The notes below the pieces were generated by a model. That model was not told where the DNA came from. It searched no databases and worked only from the letters and a program-made list of their open reading frames with translations. DNA of 59,067 nt, filler included, from Dugesia japonica (Eukaryota), in assembly GCA_001938525.1 (NCBI GenBank). It is 5 parts of 5 records of this genome, joined end to end, with 100 filler letters (N's around TTAATTAATTAA, not from the genome) between each part and the next. Parts side by side here need not be neighbours in the genome. Positions count along the whole stretch, not along the records: positions 1 to 11,956 come from MQRL01525873.1; 4 more parts are not named here. One strand, given 5' to 3'. Shown piece after piece: positions 338 through 55,659 of this stretch. Made by a program: the position numbers and the translations under genes. Position 1 is the first letter of the stretch, and every line of letters begins with the position of its first letter.

Positions 338-3300
338 AAAACAAAGATATTCATGAAAATCAGTGCCCATTCAGAATCGTCCATTGTCCTTTCAATAATA
401 ATAAATGTAAAGAAAAAATGAGATTTAATGAAATAGAGTCACACAAACAAAATTGCCAATACTCTCAAAAAACAAGTCATTTTTGAATTGTTTAATTTTT
501 TGTTTGAATGTACCATTAAATATAGATAATTTATTCATTTATTCCAAATCGGAAATTTCCAACAAATCTTTAGGTCAGGTTGGTTTGACGTATTTTTGAG
601 AGTGCAATCAATATTTTTTATGTTAGAAAATGCAATTTAAAATTTCGGAAGATAAACCAGATTTGCAGCAAATTGCGGATAATTTAACATTTAGAATTAA
701 ACGTTTGGAAACTCAGATGAATGGTTCTTTAAATAGAATGGAAAATATGTTTTATGAGTAAAATTTTACTGGTAAAATGATATTTTGATGAAAATACTCA
801 GGATTCATTCTGGAATGCAATTTATAATAAATCATTTAAATATGTTACCAGATTACGAAAAGAGTAAAAGAGAGTCAACAGCAAGTAGTTCGCCTTCATC
901 TTACATGGATAATAAATTAAATGAAATCAATCGGCCTATACCACAATTAAATGTAATTTATTGTTCCAATATTTGATTTGAAAATGAAATATGAATTCCC
1001 AGAAAAATAATCTACTGTCATTGAAAGAAATTGCCAACATTAGTGGAATAATGTCAAATAGTGGTGGAAATTCCGATACATATAAAAGCTCACACTGGAT
1101 TTGCCCCTTTTCGTTTTTAAATGCTGGCATTTTGAAGTACTTAATTAAATTATATTTTGAATAGCACCTGTCGATTATTTGATAAAATTTTTAACTTTAA
1201 TTTAATTATGCATAAATAATGATGTGAGAATATTTTGAAAAGCGAGTTGAAATTTTTGTGTGATTGCTGATCATTTTTTTAAAAAATCTTTTATTTAAAA
1301 AANNNNNNNNNNNNNNNNNNAAAGTTTTAATAGCGAATATTTGCTTTTAAATTTTGAATGAAAATTAAATAATAAATTAAAATTTTTGGCTGAACAGAAA
1401 ATTAATTTAATTATAAATTAAAATTTTTGAATAAATGAATACTTGGTTTTTAATTTTAAAATAATGATTGAATAATACAGTAAAATTTTTAAAAAAAATT
1501 TTAAATAATTTAAAAAATGATCATTAATTAAAACACGGGATTTTAATTTTTTTGAATAAACAAATAGTGTTGGATATAGTTTTGTTTTGAATAAATTTTC
1601 CTATGAAATTGAGTTCTGATATTGATGATCCGATGATGCAAATGTTATTGTTTTATAATTACAATTATTGCGGGAAAAATTGTTGGAATTAACTATTGAT
1701 CGCATTTGAGATTTCATTAAAATAAAAGAAAAAGCTTCGATCAAAATAAAATGTATTTGTAAAGAAATTCAAATTTTTGACACTCGTCTTCTTTAGGAAT
1801 GATGACTTTTCGATAGATTCAAAACGATAATAGATCTTTATTAGAAATTTCTTTATATTTTATCAGAATTTTATTGGTCTACATTTTGTTATTTTAAATC
1901 TCAAAAAATCTTTTTTTAAATTAAATTGAATTGAAAATTTCTCAAATGTTATTAAAAAAAATATATTAAAATATTAAAACGTCAAAATACTAAAACATTA
2001 AAAGATTAAAATATTGAAATATTAAAATAAAATTATTTTTCTATTAACTTTTAATAAACATTCAAAAGCTTCTCAATTCATGTCAAAAAAAATTTTATCA
2101 ATATTATTTAGTTTTTTACTGCAAAAATTTTTTTAAAATTTAATCTATTAATATTGATATTGATAATAATTTTTTTAAAAAATTTTTAATTATTGTATTT
2201 ATTAAAAATCACATTAATCTTAGGTTTATCCTCTTTAATTAATATTTGTTCATGTTTTTTTCTGCGAATTGTAGAAATGTAGCTTGTTCCTAATGTTTTC
2301 CATGTAATATGATGTTTTTCTGGTAAAAGATTATGCTTGTGTTGAAATTGTTTGAATACTTCACTTTCTTTCTGTTTGAGATGTTCTTTAATTCTTGTAC
2401 GGATGGTTTTACATGTTTCTCCTATATATGTATTCTTACATCAGGTACATGTTATTTTGTAAGTGATATTTTATACGTATTTTAGAATGTACCCGGTGCT
2501 GCTATACTTATGAACAGCATTCATGTGAAACAATATTGCCCTTCATTCGTCAAAAATGTCATTTTCTCTTGTGACTTATTCTCTAACTCCACCTGGTAAT
2601 AAGCATTGCACAAATCGATGGAGCTGAAAACACATTCACATTTAGCTTGTCAAACATTTAATCTATATTAGGAATTAGAAAAACTTGTCTTTCTGTCACT
2701 GTATTAACCTCCAAAATTTATACATAACCGTATATTCTTCTTTTTTCCAACGTAGCATTCCATGTAGAGCTACATTTCCCGATTATATTGTTCTGGAATA
2801 GATTCTGATTTACTTCTTTAATCTGTTTCTCTAATTGTAATGATAGTCTCTATGGTTTCACATATGTTGGTTTTCCTTTTGTCGTGATTTGTTGTTTAAC
2901 TAAATGCGTTTGTCCTACATCCCACTTAGATGCCATGAACACATTTTCGCATTTCTTAAAGATCATCTGTTACTCTTTTTCATTTCCCATTTCTTTGGTG
3001 TGTGAAACCCTCACCCATATTTCTCCTGCTTTTGTCTCTTTGCCAAATTTCGCTTTAATCGTATCTATCTTTTCCTCTTTCACTTGTCTGGTTCCTGATT
3101 TTATCTCTTGGCGTAATTGTTATCCAAAAACATTTTGAAAGTTCATCCCGCGATAATATCCGGACATCCATTTTCCACCACTACAAATTATACCTCATTA
3201 ATCATCTGTAATTTTACTTTTAACCTCACTTTACCTTATGCTGTCAATCCACTGTCGTTTACACATCTTAATTTATCCATACTCTATTCTATCCTTATTA

Positions 3301-6300: not shown

Positions 6301-9300
6301 CTATTGATGCGGAATCGAATTTAAAAATTTGGGAATTTAGTTCTGGATTAATGGTTAGAGAAAAGGAAGTAAAGGTTTTGTTGTTTTTAACAATTAAATT
6401 ACAAAATTTTGTTGACAGAAGCTCCACGAAAAGCCAACAACAAGTGTTGCTGTTAGCAAATCAATAATCTTCACTGGTTCGAATGCCGAAATTAGGATGT
6501 GGGATCTAATAAGTTTAGAGCAAGTCGGCTGTGTTGTCAACCACATAAATCATTTTATTCGATGTCTCGTGTTGAACCAGCCTCAGGAAAATCTTCTATA
6601 TAGTTCAGGTCATAATCAAGTTCTTGTTTGGCAGGTAAAATTGGCTAGAAAAGTTGATTCCAAATCGGTTCATAATGTAACTTTGGATCTAATGAAGTCG
6701 ATTGAACATTCTTTCTATGGTGTTTATAGCATGGTAATTTCTGCGCGATATATTATAATTGGTTTGTTTTTATTATTTTATTAATCATATTCTCTCAGTC
6801 TGTTGAAATTATTTAAAATGGTTGAAATATTTTGGACAAACTACAAAATGATTGTTAAAACGATATGATTGGTTAAACTTGGTTGGTATAAGAAATGCAC
6901 TGTGACAACAAATTATACTAAGTATTAAGGTTATATTGGAATATTCTCAATCAAAATAATCATATTTGCCAAGATATTCTAATAATATTTTGATTAGTAA
7001 CACAAACTCATACAAAATCAAATGCAAATACTAAGTTCTTATATCATAATTTTTTTCACAAATCGTATTGAGCTTGTGAGAGATGTACAAAGGTTTCAGT
7101 TGGTCTCAATTCGCAAATAAATAGTCCTAACATTAAATTGTACTTATTAATTTGNNNNNNNNNNNNNNNNNNNNNGAATAAAATAGTGTTAGAAAGTAAA
7201 TAGGTATCGATTGGAACACTTATTGTGAATGTCAATTTTAAAATCTTTGGTTTTAGGGTGATTTAGTTAAATTTCATTTCATATTAAACCCTTACTGTTA
7301 GATGAGTTTTGAGTACTTATCGGATCATCAACATCAAAATTCAACTCCATAAAATTTATTTCAAATTAAAATTATATCCAACACTATTTGTTTATTCAAA
7401 CTAATTAAAATCCCGTGTTTTAATTGGTGATCATTTTTTAAATTATTTAAAATTCATTTTAAGTTATTTAAAAAAATTTACTGTATTCTTCAATCATCTT
7501 TTTAAAATTTAAAACTAAATTTTCGTTTATTCAAAATCCTAATTTGTAATTAATTTTCATTAAAATTTAAACTAAATTTTCGTTTATTCAAAATCCTAAT
7601 TTTTAATTAATTGTCATTAAAATTTAAAACTAAATTTTCGTTATTTAAAATTTTAATCTATAATTTAAATCCTTTTTTTAAATAAAAGATTTTTTCAAAA
7701 AATGATCACCAATCACACAAAAATTTTGACCCGATTTTCAAAACATACTCACACTTACTATTACAAATGTTATTCTTAATAATCGGTTATTGATCCAAAA
7801 CTTTGCACCAGTCTTTATACTGTGGAAATTCATCTTTCAATGAAAAGTTATACAACGCGATTGGCTAAAGATAATGGTCAAATCTTTTGAGATTTCAGCT
7901 TTGAATTTCTTGAGAATTAAAATAATAAGTTTATTTAAAGTATTTACAATTGCAATTATTGCGAGAATAATTGTTGNNNNNNNNNNNNNNNNNNNNNNNN
8001 NNNNNNNNNNNNNNNNNNNNNNNNNNNNNNNNNNNNNNNNNNNNNNNNNNNNNNNNNNNNNNNNNNNNNNNNNNNNNNNNNNNNNNNNNNNNNNNNNNNN
8101 NNNNNNNNNNNNNNNNNNNNNNNNNNNNNNNNNNNNNNNNNNNNNNNNNNNNNNNNNNNNNNNNNNNNNNNNNNNNNNNNNNNNNNNNCCAAAATTTTGA
8201 TCAAAGCTTTGATATTAAATGAATTATTTAAAGTAATTTGAATTTTAAATATGAAAATGAAATTTAATTTTTTAATATAAAAAATTATTTTGAAATTAAT
8301 ATTTTAAATAATTACAAAAGTTTAATTTGTAATATCTAAAATATTTAAAATAAATAAAATAAAATAAGATTCAATTTTAAGTAAATAATTAATAAAAAAA
8401 AATGTTCTTTTAATTTTTATTAATAAAAATTTTTTAAAAATTAAAGATGCATCTAAAATTATTTGCCTGATTTAATTTATTTATTATCTTTGTATTGTAA
8501 TAAATATTTTATGGAATCAACCACTCTTAAACTCATCTGGCAATAAAAAAGTACTATTATTTAATATTGTAAAAATGTTCAAATTAATGAAGATTAAGCA
8601 TTTATTATGAAAATGAGTTCTTTATTTGTTGGCGAATTTCGAATTCTTTCCTTTCTTTANNNNNNNNNNNNNNNNNNNNNNNNNNNNNNNNNNNNNNNNN
8701 NNNNNNNNNTGAATAAAATATTAATAAAATATCAAATTCGCTTCCAAGCGATATCACTAGTCATAATGAACCCGCAACAAAATTAGCAAATAAAGACATA
8801 TGAAAATGAATAACAAAGAGAATATAATAATGAATATGGTTTCTGAAAAATAGCTTAATTGTAATAAATGCTTCAAGCATTTTGTGCAAATTTTCAGTTC
8901 TTTTACCGGTAAAAAAGTCGATTCCTGACGAAGACAAATTCGAAATGCTATAAAAAAATTTGATCGAAGCTTTTATTTTAATTATTTTCGCAATAATTGT
9001 TATTGTAAAACTTTTACCGGTGTTCTGAAATAATTTAAAATTTTGTTTAGGCCATTTGAATTCTTCGTTAGTTGTTGTTGCGGTTGTTGAATCTTTCTTT
9101 TGCAGCTTTATATCCAATTTTTCTTGAAGAGATATTTATGTCTGAATAGTTTGACTTTCATAATGTGGTTCACTTTGAATAGTTTCTTCATATTTTTGAA
9201 AAACAAAAAGTCTTGCTGCCAACTTTCTGGCGAACAGTAATTTATTTTTCGTTGGAATGATTGTAATAAGTTCATCACATCGTTGTTCCATATTTCTTCA

Positions 9301-10690
9301 GTTCACTTCTTGAGATTATTGTACAATTCCAACTCTATAGTATTCTTCAAATTTGAAAGTTTCTCTAACATGAATTCAGTTATAGTATTTGCAGTCAATA
9401 ACGTTGAATTTTCAAGGTTTAGTGTATCAACAGCAAGTTTTATCGAATCCGTGGCAGTCTGAAACATCAATGAAGCATTAAAATAAACTTTATTGATCAA
9501 ATCAAGCATATTCAATTAAGTAAATGTCCCAAACAGGCAATATTTTGCGTTAATGAGTGGAATAATCATTGTAGAAAGGTAAACATCTAACTGTAATTCA
9601 ATTTCATTTTTAAATGTTGCAATCACTTTTGACTGAAATATTCGATTTCTTACGGTCTAATTTCTGAGATATTTGACATTGCGTGCTTTTTTCAAAACTT
9701 TATGAAAATCGATATCGGAACAATTCTCCTGCACAATCGCCATATCAATTTGCTCAAAATCATCAACCTCATCTTCATCGTTAGAATCAACATGAAGCTC
9801 ACTCGAATTAATGTCGTTATTTATATTATACTATGTGTCAGTCGCTTCTAAGTGCGTCCCATTGGTCGACAATCTTGAAAATTTTCATGTTATTTTGGTT
9901 GATTGACTGTTAATTAAGCAAATCAGACATTTTAGACTCAGTTTCGAGACATTCGAGTTAGATATCGTTGCCATTATTTACGTAGTTATATTTCATTCAT
10001 AAGGAGATCATTTAACGTTTAAAGAACGAAAATTATAGAAAGGAAATTGATTTCATACCACCTGTAAATCATATCTTATTTATTAGTTGCGTTCTGTATT
10101 TTGGCCTATTATAGTCGAGTATATACCAAACTGTGAGTGTAATCGATCACTTATAAATATGTTATGAGCGTCAGCAATATGTGGTAATGTTGATCTTATG
10201 AGAAAATAGTTTTTTAATTATTTTTAAATTGGAGATAGGAATGTAGTTTTTATAATTACCAAAAGCAATTAATAATTTATCTTTATTTAATAGGAACGTA
10301 TAATAAAAACATTCAAGTCTTCAATAACGGTACTGGAGAACATTTGTTTTCATTGGCTGGTCATGTAGCTCAAGTAAATGGTTTATGTTTGACGTCTTCT
10401 GAAACTCATTTGGTTTCTGTTGCTGCAGACGGGTGTATAAATGTAAAAATATACAAACACGATATGAAAATTATGAATTTCTTTTCTTAGATATGGGAAT
10501 TAGATCGTCGAACTTTGATTCAATCGATAAATGTTGGAACTAATTATTGTGGTCAAGCTGTAACAATAATAGGGGACGTGCTGTTTATATGTGGGAGTGA
10601 TGCAGAAATTAAAGTAAACTTTTTCGATCAGTTATGTAATTTTACTGACATATAATTAAGATTTATCGTTACGATCGTTTGTTTTCATAA
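338..10690 (+). CDS. TRAF7: TRAF7-like protein (TRAF-type Zn finger, coiled coil, C-terminal WD40 repeats); 5' exons (expected RING) not seen, presumably upstream of the window
   Basis: Manual splice reconstruction, all GT-AG with matching phases: exons 338-475, 526-578, 627-757, 802-952, 1003-1136, 6037-6208, 6258-6368, 6419-6761, 10294-10442, 10491-10613, 10661-10690 (TAA). Translation gives HENQCPFRIVHCPFNNNKC...HKQNC (TRAF Zn finger), coiled coil LQQIADNLTFRIKRLETQM, then WD40s: FLNAGILK/GHHKMITSL...SSQDQTIRIWD, LTGHSFS/ISCL...LKIWE, HEKPTTSV...IFTGSNAEIRMWD, INHFIRCLV, GVYSMVISARYIIIG/TYNKNIQVF...LAGHVAQVNGL. These are colinear with the TRAF7 WD region as I recall it (e.g. NHWVRAL, VYSIAVT..IVCGTYEN). 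AATAAA at 10775-10780. Confidence 0.85.
1223..1635 (+). mobile_element. LTR fragment, same family as the solo LTR, opposite orientation
   Basis: Starts TGTGAG; reverse-complement similarity to 7319-7753 (e.g. AAAACACGGGATTTTAATT, GAATAAACAAATAGTGTTGGATAT, GATGATCCGAT); ends next to a PLE terminus. Confidence 0.75.
1651..2470 (-). mobile_element. 3' portion of a Penelope-like retroelement (GIY-YIG endonuclease plus degenerate hammerhead-bearing end)
   Basis: 2470->2200 translates NITYKITCT*CKNTYIGETCKTIRTRIKEHLKQKESEVFK...PKINV. 1812->1651 is a decayed family-A terminal repeat on the same strand. Confidence 0.8.
2480..3660 (-). mobile_element. Decayed Gypsy pol fragment (protease-RT)
   Basis: DCLLDTGAFIN (~3370-3335), FSSIDLCNAYYQVELE (~2630-2580), QYCF...IAAPGTF (~2540-2485). 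Confidence 0.75.
3880..5950 (-). mobile_element. Decayed Gypsy gag-pol fragment
   Basis: Gag zinc knuckle CFVCGKIGHIRRVC (~5390-5345), LRLCLDYRRLNS (~4290-4255), FGVAAAPGTFQE and AIVYLDDILI (~4060-3962). Confidence 0.8.
7296..7753 (-). mobile_element. Solo LTR (458 bp) with 5-bp TSD CTTAC
   Basis: TGTTAG...CTCACA termini; CTTAC at 7291-7295 and 7754-7758; homologous to 1223-1635 and to part of the PPT-adjacent LTR at ~29180-29805; three internal ~58-bp repeats at 7502-7650. Confidence 0.85.
8710..9800 (-). mobile_element. Decayed hAT-superfamily transposase (C-terminal half) in a TRAF7-like intron
   Basis: Minus-strand peptides DFHKVLKKARNVKY...VRNRIFQSKVIATFKNEIELQLDV, IKLAVDTLNLENSTLLTANTITEFMLEKL, and KLFQNTGK/RTENLHKMLEAFITIK (dimerization region); many stops and frameshifts. 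Confidence 0.65.
8911..9010 (+). mobile_element. 100-bp hammerhead-derived (PLE family A) insertion with 11-bp TSD
   Basis: CTTTTACCGGT at 8900-8910 and 9011-9021. The insert carries ATTCCTGACGAAGAC...CGAAA, TTTGATCGAAGCTTTT and CGCAATAATTGT.ATTGTAAA. Confidence 0.8.
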
Positions 10691-18573: not shown

Positions 18574-19018
18574 GAAAATCGTCACTTATAAAATAACATG
18601 CACCATATGTAAAGAAATATTTGTAGGTGGAATATTCAGAACAATTTTAACTAGAATTAAGAAACATCTCAAACAAAAAGAAAGTGAAGTCTTCAAACAC
18701 TTTCAACGCAAACATAAAATTTCACTAGAACAACATCATATAACATGGGAAGCACTAGAAACAGGCTAAATTTCCACACTTCACAGGAAGAAACATGAAA
18801 TTTATCAATTAAAACAGATAAACCTAAAATTAATGTAATTTACNNNNNNNNNNNNNNNNNNNNNNNNNNNNNNNNNNNNNNNNNNNNNNNNNNNNNNNNN
18901 NNNNNNNNNNNNNNNNNNNNNNNNNNNNNNNNNNNNNNNNNNNNNNNNNNNNNNNNNNNNNNNNNNNNNNNNNNNNNNNNNNATCAAAATTTTTGTTTTT
19001 TTTATTGATATTGGATAA

Positions 19019-19055
19019 CAATTCGATATTTCGACCTTGTCTTCGTCAGGAATTG
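19019..19055 (-). ncRNA. Minimal type I hammerhead ribozyme, exact inverted copy of 19079-19115
   Basis: Exact reverse complement of the 37-nt motif, separated from it by 23 bp. Confidence 0.85.
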
Positions 19056-19078
19056 ATTTTTTTGAGTTATCTAAAAGT

Positions 19079-19115
19079 CAATTCCTGACGAAGACAAGGT
19101 CGAAATATCGAATTG
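19079..19115 (+). ncRNA. Minimal type I hammerhead ribozyme (Penelope-type), family A
   Basis: CAATTC-CTGACGA-A-GAC(AAG)GTC-GAAA-TATC-GAATTG. Stem I CAATTC/GAATTG is perfect, core CUGANGA and GAAA are intact, stem II is 3 bp, and palindromic ATAT replaces stem III. Predicted cut after AUC (C19109). Confidence 0.85.
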
Positions 19116-20329
19116 TTATCTAATATCCGTAAAAAACCAAAATTTTGATCAAAGCTTTTTTATTAAAAAAATTCAATAAATAAAATAAATTCTAAAAACA
19201 TTTCTAATTCAATAAATAAATCTTGAATAAATCAGAAAGTTAATTCCTGAAGCAGACAAAAATTAAAAATTTGAAATATTAACAACTAAAAAAATATTTT
19301 AAAAAAACAACATTTTGATCGAAACTTTTAGTTTAATAAAGTAAATTAAATTTTTTAATATTATCAATTTCTTAATTTATGAATTTTTCTTATTGCATAT
19401 ATTTCTATCATATCAAATGCATTTGGGACCACAAAAGTTTTCTCGTGGTTTTTGTAATTGGATATCCAAAAGTGCTTGCGTTTTGAATATTATTCTTGGA
19501 TTATGCTTGAGTTTAAACTTCTTTATTATATTTTGAATGATTTGACTGTATTTCTCATTTAAAAAGGTATTTTGAAAAGGTTTTGAGTTTACATCGAATG
19601 ATCGTCATTTTGAAAATTTTCTTTATTTAATAATTATAATAAAATTTCATGTTATTTATTTCTTTTATTTCAAAAGTATTTCTTTAAAAAAGAATCCACC
19701 TAGTTAGCAGATGGATAGATGATGTCTATTTAAAGATCTTTTTCAAAATTTTCAGTTTCATGCAAGTCATTCTAATTAAATGTAATTGTATTGACGAGTC
19801 TGAGCTCAAATTATTTCATTATATGAGCTATTCATAATATACTATTGTTTTCAAAAGTAAAATGACTTTTTAATAATTTAATCGCCTTCAAATTAATTGC
19901 CTTCTTTTGCAACACACATTTGCCAACGTTGGATTTAATCCTCAAAACACTTTTTTGTATTAAAAATTTTTATTTCCATCAATTTCCTTCGATTTTTGTT
20001 TTATTGATTCCTCTGACTTAAATTGAGTTTTTTGAAGTGTCAACATATTCTGGAGAATACGATGCTTGCTGAGCAATATTTCTAGAATGTTTGGTAATAA
20101 ACTCATGCATCATGAAAATTTTGCCCATAAATCTAGTCTTTCTTGACGAATTTATTCGTTCAAACGATTCATAACTTGTAAGTAATACTAACTGTTTTAC
20201 ATTGTTACAAAAATTAATGATGCACCACGCCTCAATAATTCAAAAAGCAAGGAGCAAGATCCTTGTTTTAAATTGTGTTTGACAAAAAATTTCGTATTTG
20301 GTTCATATGCAGTGCGCCATTAACTTTCT

Positions 20330-22205: not shown

Positions 22206-22256
22206 TTTAATTGCCTGACGATGAAGATTATTCCGTCGAAATTAATTGCAAGTAAA
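22206..22256 (+). ncRNA. Minimal hammerhead-like motif, family B (degenerate stem II)
   Basis: TTTAATTGC-CTGACGA-TGAAGATTATTCCGTC-GAAA-TTAATT-GCAAGTAAA; inverted homolog of 21415-21462. Confidence 0.6.
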
Positions 22257-26851: not shown

Positions 26852-28291
26852 CAGTGTGAACCTCTCAAAAAGACCATCTTCGTAAAGTGACTAAGCTTTA
26901 TTGATGACCGCCTCCATTAAAGTGATAATTTTTAATTTTTGTTTTAAAATTAGGCAAGTCTAAGGCTTAAAGGTCAAAATTTGGCAAAAGATGTGATCAC
27001 TGATAAAATAATTTTTAATTGACTTTTAACATGTGGAAATTAAAAAATACAAGGTTGAAATCAATAAATAAAAATTGGAAAATCTTGTTTCAGTAAATAT
27101 TTTCCAAGTATTTTTAATTTAAAATTCAAAGGCAATATTAACAGAAAACCAGTAATAAGAGATTTTTTCAAAACTTTTGACGAAAAAAATGTTTTAGAGG
27201 AAATTAACCAAAGAATATGATGTTACTGAAACAGCCATCCAGAAAATATCTTGTCCGATGAAACTCAATCATTAAAAATAAGATGTGTTCAAAGGAAAGA
27301 ACAACAATTATATTATGTTGTCTGAAAAAACGACGAAAATGACTGCCGATATTTATTGGGAAATCTAAGAATCCACGAGTTTTTAAAATTATATTTAGAC
27401 AAGGTAAATTTTTTATATGAATCTAGTAACAATGCATCGATGGAAAAAAAATTTTGTTAATTGATTATTTAAACTTAATCAAGAGTTTAAGAAGTAGAAT
27501 AGAACATAATCATTATGCGCAATAACTGCACCGCTCATATCGACACTGATTTCTTTAATATCAAATTGATATTTTTACCTNCTAACACTACCTGTCTTAT
27601 TCAACCTCAGGGTGATGGAATTATTAAAAATTTCAAAGAAAATTACAAAGATCTATAACTGAAAATACTTCTGTTTTCAGAGAATTGTAACATTTAATAT
27701 ATATTAAAATCCGTAACGATATTAGATGCAATAATGTGGTCAAAACTTGCGTTATATCAAAAAAGGTAACTACAATTACAATTGTGAAACCATATTAAAA
27801 TTTCATTGGAACATAGAACAAGATTTCCTAAGAAATGATACCGGCGAAAATAAAAATAAAGAAATTATTGATAATGGATTAAATGGTGTTATCCATGATC
27901 TAAAAATGTGCAATCGTGAGGAACTAGATAGTTTCGAATCCAATGACGGTGCAACACATATGTTGAAGTATGAGATTTTAAAAATTATGTATGCTTTAAA
28001 AGCATACTCTGCCGAGTACTGCCCTGATTAGTTAAGAGAGATATATTTGCTAGAAAATAAACTGATTCAATCATCAAAGCCATCGAAATAAAATATTCTT
28101 AGAATATTAAAATAAATATTGTCATATTCGTTTTTGTTCTACTTTTAGTGATTTTAGAATAATTTTACACTTGCAATTATTGAGAGAATAATTGTTGGAA
28201 TAATGCATTTTAGAATAACATCAAAAAGGTTATCACCTCCAAAAATGTGACCATCGTCGATAAAAACTGTCTCTCTTGTTAGGTTCCACTG
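26852..28291 (+). mobile_element. pogo/Tigger-like DNA transposon remnant
   Basis: Ends CAGTGTGAACCT / AGGTTCCACTG; DDE_1 motif NNCTAH...LIFLP.NTTCLIQPQGDGIIKNFK at 27520-27640. Confidence 0.75.
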
Positions 28292-52630: not shown

Positions 52631-54738
52631 TCTTCACAAAAAACACACAGTTAATATAAACAAATAACACAAAATAACAGATAAAAACATAGTATAATGT
52701 AAATATTTTGAAAACAATATTGCGTTGTAATTATTATTATGTAAATTTGAATGCGTTTAGTTCCTTTTATTATTGTTGTATTAAAGGGGGAAGTTTTATG
52801 TAATGTTATTGTTTTTATTTTTATATTTTTCTTTATAATAGATACTTTGATGTTCAAATTCAAGATACTTTTATTTTTTCAAAATTTGATGATTCATCTT
52901 TAGAGACCATAATGAGACTAAATGAGTTATTCATGAGAAAATCTCATAATAAGTACTTGTTTTTAATTTATTTGATCAATAATAAAGTATGATGATTTTA
53001 TCCATATTAATAATGATATTTGAAAGTAATTTAATTATTTTATGGTTCATCGGTAATAGCAGTTCTTTTACAGTTCATTAATGGTTCTTCGATTCCTATT
53101 TTTCACTTACCTTTGCTTAATAACTTTTTATCTATAAGGTTTGGTGATTTTTAACAAAGTTTTTCTTACTCAAAATAAAATCCTCTATTGAATAGTTACT
53201 TTGATGTTTAAATCTGAACTAATAATCCCAAAATTCATAATTTCCTCCCAGACTCCCAAAATGAAGTATATGTTTTGTCAATATAACATTTTATTTAAAA
53301 GGTTTGATGATTATAGGTGGGATATTATAGAGAGCACAGCTAAATATCTTCGTTAGGAAGCATTTTTACCGAGACAATATTTGAACTTTTCACAGACACT
53401 AATACTAAAGTCGAAACCATACAAGTGATGTACGAAGAGAAAATAGAGCACGAAAATTCAAAATTTGAGATTTTTCAGGACAAAACCATATTTATTTATT
53501 CCCGGATAAACTTTGGTGATTTTAAGGTTATATATTTGGAATCAGCGTAAATTTCTCTATCTAATAGACTTAGTTATTTAATGTAAAGATGAGAAATAAT
53601 TTTTTCGAAAATTTTTTTTGTGAAAAATAATTTCCATCTAATTTTGCATCGATTGATGTAAAAATCTCGACAAAAATTGTTGTAAACATTTTTTAAATTT
53701 CAAATGCTTTTCCATATTCTCATAAAAATTTGATTTAAAAATTTTTTAAATGTGAGAATTCAAACAAAAATGATCTAATTTCACCAATCTAAACTAACTT
53801 TTCTCGAGAAAATGATTGACCAAATCACCCAAAACTTAACCGAATTTGACATTCCATAGGAAATAATTGACCAAGTCTTCTAAAAATAACCCAAATTGAC
53901 CTCTTCGAAGAAAAATTTGACCCAATCACCTTAAAAGTCATACAAATTTTTCATTCCTGAGAAAATATTCGATCAATTTCGCCGAAAACCATTAAAAAAT
54001 TGACCACATTCAGTCCAATCACCTAAAAATTACCCAAACCGATCAATCCCGGGGAAACAGTTGATCTAATTCACCTGGATCAACCGAAAATCTTCCTCAC
54101 CAAATAAATTCCTATCTAAATGAAAATGAAAAATTCTGTCGCTTAAAAACCCTCAAAGAATTTCCCAACTAAATACACAGTAAAAATATTGCCGCTTAAA
54201 AAGCCTATAAAAATTCTACGGCTTAAAAAGCCTGAAATTTGAAAATAATTCGGCAAGTTTTTAACAAATATGAGCAAAACTTATGTAATCGCACATAAAT
54301 TTTGATTGCCGCATAAAAACACATAAAAAATACTGCCTCACTTACGTAATAATCCGATTACGTCAACGGCGGGGGGCTACTGAATGTGTGCAGAAACTGA
54401 CAGCCACTATCCACCTACTATAATGATAGAACCTACTATTTATTTCCCAACACAAATGTGAGATGTTGTAATTTATGGTAGAAAATTTGAAAAGTTTATT
54501 AGAATATTCATAAATTTAAGAAAATCCAACCACATAATTTTCATCAAACTCGATTGGTTATAAAAACTCCAATGTTATTTTGAAATTTTAATATAACAAA
54601 TTTTAATGGATAATTTAATATTATATTTATCTATTCCAATGTTACTTATAAAAAAAGGATTATTTTGTTTTTTTAAAAAAATAATTTACTTTGTAATTTT
54701 CAGGTTACTTTACTGCTCATTCATTCTAGTTTTAAATT

Positions 54739-55659
54739 ATGAATAATACTACAATTTGTTCTGGTATAATTGCTGAACAGAGAGGCGTGCAGCCCATTTA
54801 TCATTATTGTTTTTATTTTTTTATTTCACTCTGTGGAGTATTAACGAATTTGTTCCTTCTCATTAATTATAAATACAATTCAAAAGTTATTCTCGGTAAA
54901 AGAGCAACATTTGTTTTGACCATGAATCTATTAATATTTTCTGATTTTGCAAATTCTATTTATCTAAATGTCGGATTAGGTGTATCAATATTTTCAACNG
55001 AAATTTCCAACCTATCACAAGAAATGGTTTATTCTCTAAGAAATTTTGCAATAATTATTCAATCANTCATATTTACATTGATTTCGATCGATCGATTATT
55101 AGCAATTGTGCGACCAATTGAAATTAAATGGAAACCTCTTTTAATAAAACAATTTTTATCAATTATGACACCATTAATATTAGTTTATGAAATATTAATG
55201 AAATACTTGATTAACAATACTTCGCTATTATGTTCATATCGTGTTTTATTAAACATTATTTTTACAAGGTTTCATTTGTCTTTAATCCTTATTTGTGTGC
55301 TGATTAATACTGTTTGTTATTTTAGTTTATTCTTAGTGTTTTATTTTCATAGTTATAAAGGTAAGCATCAATCTGTTTCGAATAAAAATGTAATAAAAGT
55401 TGCTAGAATTACTGTTTTAACAACAGTCATTTATATATTGTGCTTGATTCCTCCATTTGTCAATTCCATGAGACCTGGTTCATTGCCAGTTTTTATTTCG
55501 TTTATTTTGTATTGGCATGTGGTTATCAATCCAATATTGTTCATTATTGATAATTCTTATTTACGAAAAATTATTTGTCGTAGATCCAATATTGTAGAAC
55601 AATCCACATCAATAAATACAAAGATTAATAAACCAATTGTAAAGATTTTTCTAAAATAA
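54739..55659 (+). CDS. Divergent rhodopsin-family (class A) 7TM GPCR, 306 aa, single coding exon
   Basis: Longest ORF in the window; about seven hydrophobic segments; N-terminal NNT sequon; TM1 GVLTN, TM2 L..SD, TM3 SIDRLLAIVRP (DRY-like), TM6 CLIP, TM7 INPILF. Acceptor-like TTTTCAG ends at 54703, upstream of the ATG. Confidence 0.85.
   Translation: MNNTTICSGIIAEQRGVQPIYHYCFYFFISLCGVLTNLFLLINYKYNSKVILGKRATFVLTMNLLIFSDFANSIYLNVGLGVSIFSXEISNLSQEMVYSLRNFAIIIQSXIFTLISIDRLLAIVRPIEIKWKPLLIKQFLSIMTPLILVYEILMKYLINNTSLLCSYRVLLNIIFTRFHLSLILICVLINTVCYFSLFLVFYFHSYKGKHQSVSNKNVIKVARITVLTTVIYILCLIPPFVNSMRPGSLPVFISFILYWHVVINPILFIIDNSYLRKIICRRSNIVEQSTSINTKINKPIVKIFLK

Follow-up and report, generated by a model that had tools for sequence, protein, structure and literature searches.

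The window analysed here, a stretch of 59,067 nucleotides joined from five records of the Dugesia japonica genome (GCA_001938525.1), contains a 100-bp insert within a decayed transposase-like fragment (Table 1). The locus lies on contig C525873 (MQRL01525873.1), the coordinates of which are identical to those of the window. The insert is flanked by two copies of the 11-mer CTTTTACCGGT, which lie 111 bp apart and are the only ones in the window. The two flanks and one empty copy served as queries, and after merging of near-identical loci according to our own grouping, 18 host copies were found to cover the site: 13 empty ones with a single 11-mer, two filled ones, two that have lost the site through a 12–14 bp deletion, and one that breaks off where the site ends. 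The empty paralogues L032 and L039 read TGKRTEDLQKLFETF and TGKRIENLQKLFEPLLTIRPTYTDVERVFS there, respectively, and the empty paralogues thus fix the exact insert junctions. The junctions are also crossed by contigs from two further DNA studies; a joint lacking the insert was not listed in any of four runs, whose contigs show presence only. The duplication and the 100-bp insertion are real, as originally predicted. Whether other hAT copies contain the segment, on which that prediction had been staked, received a divided answer, because the 13 empty copies lack it and one copy carries an insert of a different subfamily at the same base.

Table 1. Features of the insert locus and of related copies (positions in the window unless a locus is named)
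Feature	Position	Strand	Remarks
Host fragment, hAT-like transposase (modestly supported)	8854..9854	-	decayed; five stops, 19-bp frameshifting deletion at 9255
Left target-site duplication copy	8900..8910		11-mer, single-copy in empty paralogues
100-bp insert	8911..9010	+	assigned to a GIY-YIG Penelope-like terminal repeat (pLTR head and tail end), subfamily A1, internally deleted
Right target-site duplication copy	9011..9021		exact repeat of the 11-mer
Minimal type I hammerhead remnant	8920..8945	+	stem I 5' strand, CTGACGA, extra A, imperfect stem II, GAAA
Shared AAT at the ~37-bp deletion junction	8980..8982	+	deletion removed the region of the putative start codon and the bulk of the tail; genome-unique
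Tail 3' end	8980..9010	+	short hairpin AATTATT..AATAATT and conserved terminus TGTAAAA
Longer family copy	1652..2479	-	GIY-YIG coding end (Pfam) at 2186-2479, upstream of the terminal repeat
Intact-looking family hammerhead, for comparison	19079-19115		extra A before stem II, palindromic stem III
44-bp tail-only insertion, no hammerhead	28163..28206	-	perfect 12-bp duplication at 28151-28162 and 28207-28218
Insert of a second Penelope subfamily, 187 bp	L046:289-497 (C446254)		near-identical in L037 and L048; 28-bp inverted 5' stub

The host fragment and its open frame

Intact relatives of the host align to positions 9013–9854 (tblastn, E down to 3e-29). The host in the window matches the relative L073 with an E value of 5e-17, and L073 matches the Hermes transposase (E 5e-4) and Pfam Dimer_Tnp_hAT (E 0.003, below the cut-off). 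Direct Pfam scans of the host frames in the window returned no hAT family in seven queries, and another relative, L072, had no PDB match. The predicted identity of the host as a hAT-like transposase is therefore supported modestly and indirectly, through its intact relatives.

The copy in the window is a pseudogene. Its homology to the paralogues is lost below 8854, before their ERVFS-type motif. Among same-burst paralogues, the five that overlap it furthest gave a dN/dS ratio of 0.82–1.15; three older-branch copies gave 0.45–0.55, and shorter overlaps 0.67–1.61.

The minus frame is open over the insert, as had been claimed, and stop-free from 8761 to 9135. By chance, only ~1–2% of additions would have a length divisible by three and also lack stops (3.8% of 5,000 shuffles were open, as were 3 of 67 full family units in register), and the addition in a second filled copy, L046, is likewise a multiple of three (198 bp). 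These two facts speak for the idea that the insertion was retained because it left intact the frame of a hAT-derived protein that still had a use. However, the nearest stop lies ~38 codons upstream of the insert with four more stops and the frameshift beyond it, the homology is gone 15 codons downstream, and the insert in L046 is interrupted by stops when read in the transposase frame. Likewise, just a handful of RNA reads fell on the unique flanks in three raw-read runs, 6–26% of which was covered; no RNA dataset with the locus was listed among the indexed runs. Given five stops, a frameshift and a dN/dS near 1 in the host, the open frame is probably a coincidence, and we give retention for coding next to no chance of being right. 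The in-frame insertion thus stands as an observation, and its functional reading is unsupported.

Several other rearrangements were seen in the host family. Two separate deletions between short direct repeats, in L243/L079 and in L240/L245, account for the two site losses. In L052 (C595617, minus strand near 1451), the host homology stops precisely where the target 11-mer finishes, and the sequence joined past it is presumably the coding sequence of another hAT family. A fragile site, considered on the strength of the two deletions and the one break, was rejected because deletions of at least 8 bp are, by eye, common along the whole host alignment. Elsewhere in the host, L047 has gained ~160 bp of unrelated AT-rich sequence that includes a gap. 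Apart from the host, positions 54736–55659 (plus strand) of the window hold a 307-residue open frame with several hydrophobic stretches that looks receptor-like by eye.

The repeat family, the insert and its hammerhead

The insert belongs to a dispersed repeat of ~150–165 bp. A 30-nt pattern of its 3' end has 4,891 exact matches genome-wide, against 0 for a control; as just 6 of 52 copies retrieved in other ways fit this pattern, the true copy number may, by rough scaling, be tens of thousands. Longer copies extend upstream into an AT-rich 3' region and then into the end of a GIY-YIG coding sequence. In the copy at 1652–2479, Pfam GIY-YIG was found with an E value of 1.3e-6 (29 bits, cut-off 22.6), and the domain scored above the cut-off in L261 too. 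At 15 of the 19 testable loci (31 examined), the repeat lies on the same strand within 450 nt 3' of the GIY-YIG end. One locus, L262, shows reverse transcriptase (RT) motifs followed by a thumb, a cysteine-rich linker and GIY-YIG; its Pfam RVT_1 match (E 3.5e-4) is below the Pfam cut-off. Given that the repeat trails GIY-YIG and that RT lies upstream in L262, we assign the repeat as the pLTR of a Penelope-like element (PLE) with a C-terminal endonuclease. The linker cysteines point to the Neptune or Nematis type, as these are described in the available part of PMC8557442.

Family copies terminate near model position 92 or, with an added tail, at 153. In 32 of 42 copies, the tail can be read from an ATG without a stop, which suggests that it is the start of the ORF of the element. 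No full-length element with a tail running into the RT frame was found among the family copies. L277 was considered as such an element and rejected, since its post-tail sequence looks like unrelated flank with a gag-like zinc knuckle.

This architecture is familiar. In the excerpts available of PMC3846280 and PMC8557442, a pLTR with an optional tail of 30–40 bp, inverted copies, duplications of 8–10 bp, microhomology deletions and solo pLTRs are all described. The Pen families of Adineta vaga (PMC3846280; scheme in PMC8557442) resemble the D. japonica family in the pLTR with its optional tail, the head-to-head inverted copies, the variable duplications of ~10 bp, the microhomology-type deletions, and the C-terminal GIY-YIG with a cysteine-rich linker. 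They differ in that solo pLTRs in Adineta are, in the same excerpts of PMC3846280, often devoid of duplications, whereas many D. japonica copies have them; the D. japonica family also differs in its copy number, in the thousands or more.

The insert matches the repeat profile over model positions 4–151 and is 89–91% identical to the nearest dispersed copies. It had been described as a shortened terminal repeat of the family, and it does turn out to be one that has lost, in addition, ~37 bp internally, an 8-nt piece and a ~13-nt piece. The junction of the 37-bp deletion lies between two AAT triplets and has a single match, with up to 2 mismatches, in 854 Mb, namely the insert locus itself. The 100-bp deleted form is therefore not a mobile unit. 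The 8-nt loss lies between two TCGAAA repeats and recurs in 11 of 79 near-full copies, a sample enriched by the query.

The insert retains the core of a hammerhead, with CUGANGA at 8925–8931 and GAAA at 8942–8945, and this GAAA may be what is left of the downstream TCGAAA repeat. As predicted, the 3' strand of stem I is lost (0 of 5 positions pair), and stem II also pairs at only 2 of 3 positions. The cleavage site and the stem I 3' strand are missing because of the 8-nt loss between the two TCGAAA repeats. The Rfam scan of the window gave no match at the gathering score. Judged by its pairing, the hammerhead in the insert is broken. Among the 79 near-full copies, the core is preserved in 31, and nine pass the full hammerhead test.

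The excerpts of PMC4209133 describe minimal hammerheads as mostly single motifs, from truncated copies. The intact family copies are like the minimal type I hammerheads described for the PLE pLTRs of metazoans (same excerpts) in their core, the extra base before stem II, the G-C that opens stem II and the tiny palindromic stem III. The family departs from them in that stem II of subfamily A1 has just 3 bp and in that the insert is without the cleavage site and the stem I 3' strand.

Other hammerhead-bearing segments were also noted. Positions 18575–19340 comprise the end of a GIY-YIG coding sequence and, past a gap, a pair of repeat heads arranged head to head, in which either strand bears a minimal hammerhead that looks intact; a third head in the segment is decayed. 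Two copies of a separate hammerhead-like family, in which stem II is longer, lie on opposite strands, at 22215 (plus) and 21453 (minus), and a third hammerhead-like motif was found downstream of the coding sequence of another PLE family (L118, L121, L125 and L126).

Copy ends and the route of integration

With boundaries anchored on the repeat profile, 99 tail-bearing copies could be tested, and 36 of them scored at least 9 for a duplication at the predicted boundary; among 300 swapped controls, 8 did so. The anchoring matters, in that permissive BLAST boundaries over-extended in AT-rich sequence and an unanchored duplication search was barely above its control. The duplications are mostly 11–13 bp long, with a mode of 12 bp, and bound inserts of 34–320 bp, of which seven, 34–58 bp in length, are without a hammerhead. 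A head-to-head inverted partner also accompanies 36 of the 99 testable tail-bearing copies. In the 3' flanks of the family (L145–L225), A is favoured directly after the tail, followed by C or T and then by AAT. Of 77 flanks, 11 resemble microsatellites, and the GC content of the flanks is 16%, compared with 27% for the window. Some 700 bp to the left of the insert, a tail piece at 7943–7977 (minus) and a head piece at 8189–8249 (plus) flank an N gap, probably as parts of a fold-back insertion.

The 5' ends were read in a sample chosen by the 3' end alone, from short contigs, in which 31 of 82 copies are cut by contig ends or gaps. Among the 51 uncut copies, 30 ends are scattered and 21 lie at or beyond the start of the repeat; by eye, three of these 21 continue upstream and ~18 stop there, within ~10 nt. 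The original prediction equated randomly distributed 5' ends with ordinary PLE truncation, and on this point the ends give a mixed answer. The family is a continuum of lengths that contains a preferred product of 150–175 bp, as judged from the ~18 of 51 copies that stop near the repeat start; 12 of these ~18 have an inverted partner. This unit could in part have been copied from short non-coding sources. The 5' end of the insert in the window lies at the repeat start, the commonest start in the family.

Very short insertions are not peculiar to this family. In the accessible part of PMC9977147, new PLE insertions have a median length of 128 bp, and the de novo insertions of Chlamys-9 and Chlamys-N4 in Chlamydomonas are likewise very short, 5'-truncated and targeted to microsatellites. 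Those elements of a green alga are, however, of the N-terminal EN+ kind and are described there without canonical hammerheads, unlike the present family.

The original prediction left two readings side by side: an extremely shortened PLE copy, or a non-autonomous, retrozyme-like unit. The first is supported by the terminal position of the repeat relative to GIY-YIG at the 15 of 19 loci, and the 5' end lies at the family peak. According to the second, the 100-bp unit is a separately mobile, retrozyme- or SINE-like mini-element that spreads via hammerhead-processed RNA. Integration with no coding sequence and a clean duplication, the same 5' end at the peak start, and the recurrence of the hammerhead-breaking 8-nt loss in the query-enriched near-full copies could all be read in this way, and retrozyme monomers derived from pLTRs are described in the excerpt available of bioRxiv 10.64898/2026.07.22.740005. 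However, the deleted form is single-copy in the genome, which largely refutes the reading, and there is no tandem array at the insert locus. The hammerhead fails both the stem I and the stem II tests; the insert does not end at the predicted cut site, and a unit cut there would lack the core; hammerhead-free copies, including the duplication-flanked ones of 34–58 bp, integrate equally well; and the family is the terminus of coding PLEs. Back-joints were not listed in three oligo-dT/cDNA raw-read runs, a type unsuited to circles. We consider this second reading very improbable. Retrozymes, in the parts of PMC7229834 and bioRxiv 10.64898/2026.07.22.740005 that were available, are tandem units, each with a complete hammerhead. 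The insert resembles the animal non-LTR retrozymes described in these sources in being non-coding, in its type I hammerhead ancestry and in its pLTR kinship, and differs from the tandem, complete-hammerhead retrozymes of PMC7229834 in being a single broken stub with ends that follow PLE rules.

The insert is thus very probably a PLE terminal repeat with a tail stub, likely delivered by target-primed reverse transcription into a hAT copy that was probably already decaying, and trimmed later. In PLE biology, as outlined in the excerpts of PMC8557442, the GIY-YIG endonuclease nicks the target and the RT extends the nick on RNA. Applied to this locus, nicking by the element itself and target-primed reverse transcription would have placed the stub, and a second nick 11 bp away would have produced the 11-bp duplication. 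Reverse transcription was probably primed at the fixed tail end TGTAAAA and would have stopped at the repeat start, the commonest stop, giving a stub of ~150–160 bp. As template we infer the 5' leader of the element RNA; the repeat start is probably the 5' end of this RNA because fold-back junctions cluster there. A template cut by the hammerhead would start downstream of the core and could not yield the 5' end of the insert. Small deletions between short repeats would then have cut the stub to 100 bp, the 37-bp deletion being private to the insert and presumably arising during or after integration, and the 8-nt deletion being common to other copies. The enzymatic steps, the order of events and the 5'-leader template are all to be taken in this conditional sense.

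A second insert at the same base

The second filled host copy, L046, carries its insert at exactly the same base as the window and in the same orientation. This insert belongs to a second subfamily (A2): it is 86–89% identical to its own group and 79% identical to the insert in the window. Two accounts of the coincidence were weighed, namely two independent insertions, or one ancestral insertion that was later overwritten in one copy by the other subfamily through gene conversion.

The shared base and orientation would fit gene conversion, as would the 82% identity of the two filled hosts, which is the top value, although an empty copy ties with it. A case in which one Alu subfamily wholly replaced another at a single locus is documented in the accessible part of PMC554112, and a primer-side weight matrix found the site unremarkable (rank 284 of 518), which also speaks for this account. 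On the other side, the insert in L046 ranks only 62nd of 78 by likeness from the window side, and each insert is 86–91% identical to its own subfamily; both are nearer to their own subfamilies than the filled hosts are to each other. The 5' junctions differ, with the 28-bp inverted stub in L046 and a direct start in the window, and so do the 3' ends. Both duplicate copies read GTT in L046 and GGT in the window, unless the duplication in L046 is shorter. The filled hosts grouped together in 2% of 200 bootstrap trees, in a star-like host tree of 11 rows with enough flank, to which the L046 group contributed only L037. Independent insertion is the better reading, since gene conversion needs several extra events; we regard the latter as improbable and the two inserts as likely independent.

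Whether the base attracts PLEs is less clear. By hand, assuming uniform insertion and ~40,000 copies, the chance of a second hit within one base in the 17 other copies is ~0.001. One recurrence fits either chance across a large scan or a real hot spot. The heptamer CTTTTAC was tried as a cue and rejected: the genome holds eight matches behind a tail, of which four represent the two hAT events and the others have no host similarity, and the rough expectation from composition is 3–9, so that CTTTTAC shows no enrichment behind tails. In five empty paralogues, a DNA hairpin surrounding the site was neither conserved nor unusually stable, and the primer-side rank of the site does not account for the coincidence either. 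We suggest, tentatively and with somewhat more doubt than confidence, that the base is a true PLE hot spot that was hit independently by two subfamilies in 2 of 18 copies, in which case the cue would be a local feature beyond the primer-side consensus.

In the literature covered, which was partial and excluded supplements, we found no previous description of PLEs inserting repeatedly at exactly the same base of paralogous transposons. The nearest likeness is that of the parallel Alu insertions and replacement in PMC554112, in which different subfamilies likewise occupy corresponding sites. In the part of that source available, the Alu cases are near-parallel and concern orthologous loci across species, whereas the hAT case is exact to the base and concerns paralogous copies within one genome.

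Taken by itself, the insert is one among thousands of Penelope end-stubs, a described product, with no sign of a new mobile RNA. The fixed 3' end, the 12-bp mode of the duplications and the 5' peak fit internal priming on an RNA leader and bear on the unsettled integration mechanism of PLEs. If the hot spot is true, the base-exact double insertion would be a concrete substrate for testing the specificity of the PLE endonuclease, and the paralogous hAT copies would form a natural replicate experiment on PLE target choice. In that case, the presence of PLEs at matching sites need not imply common descent.
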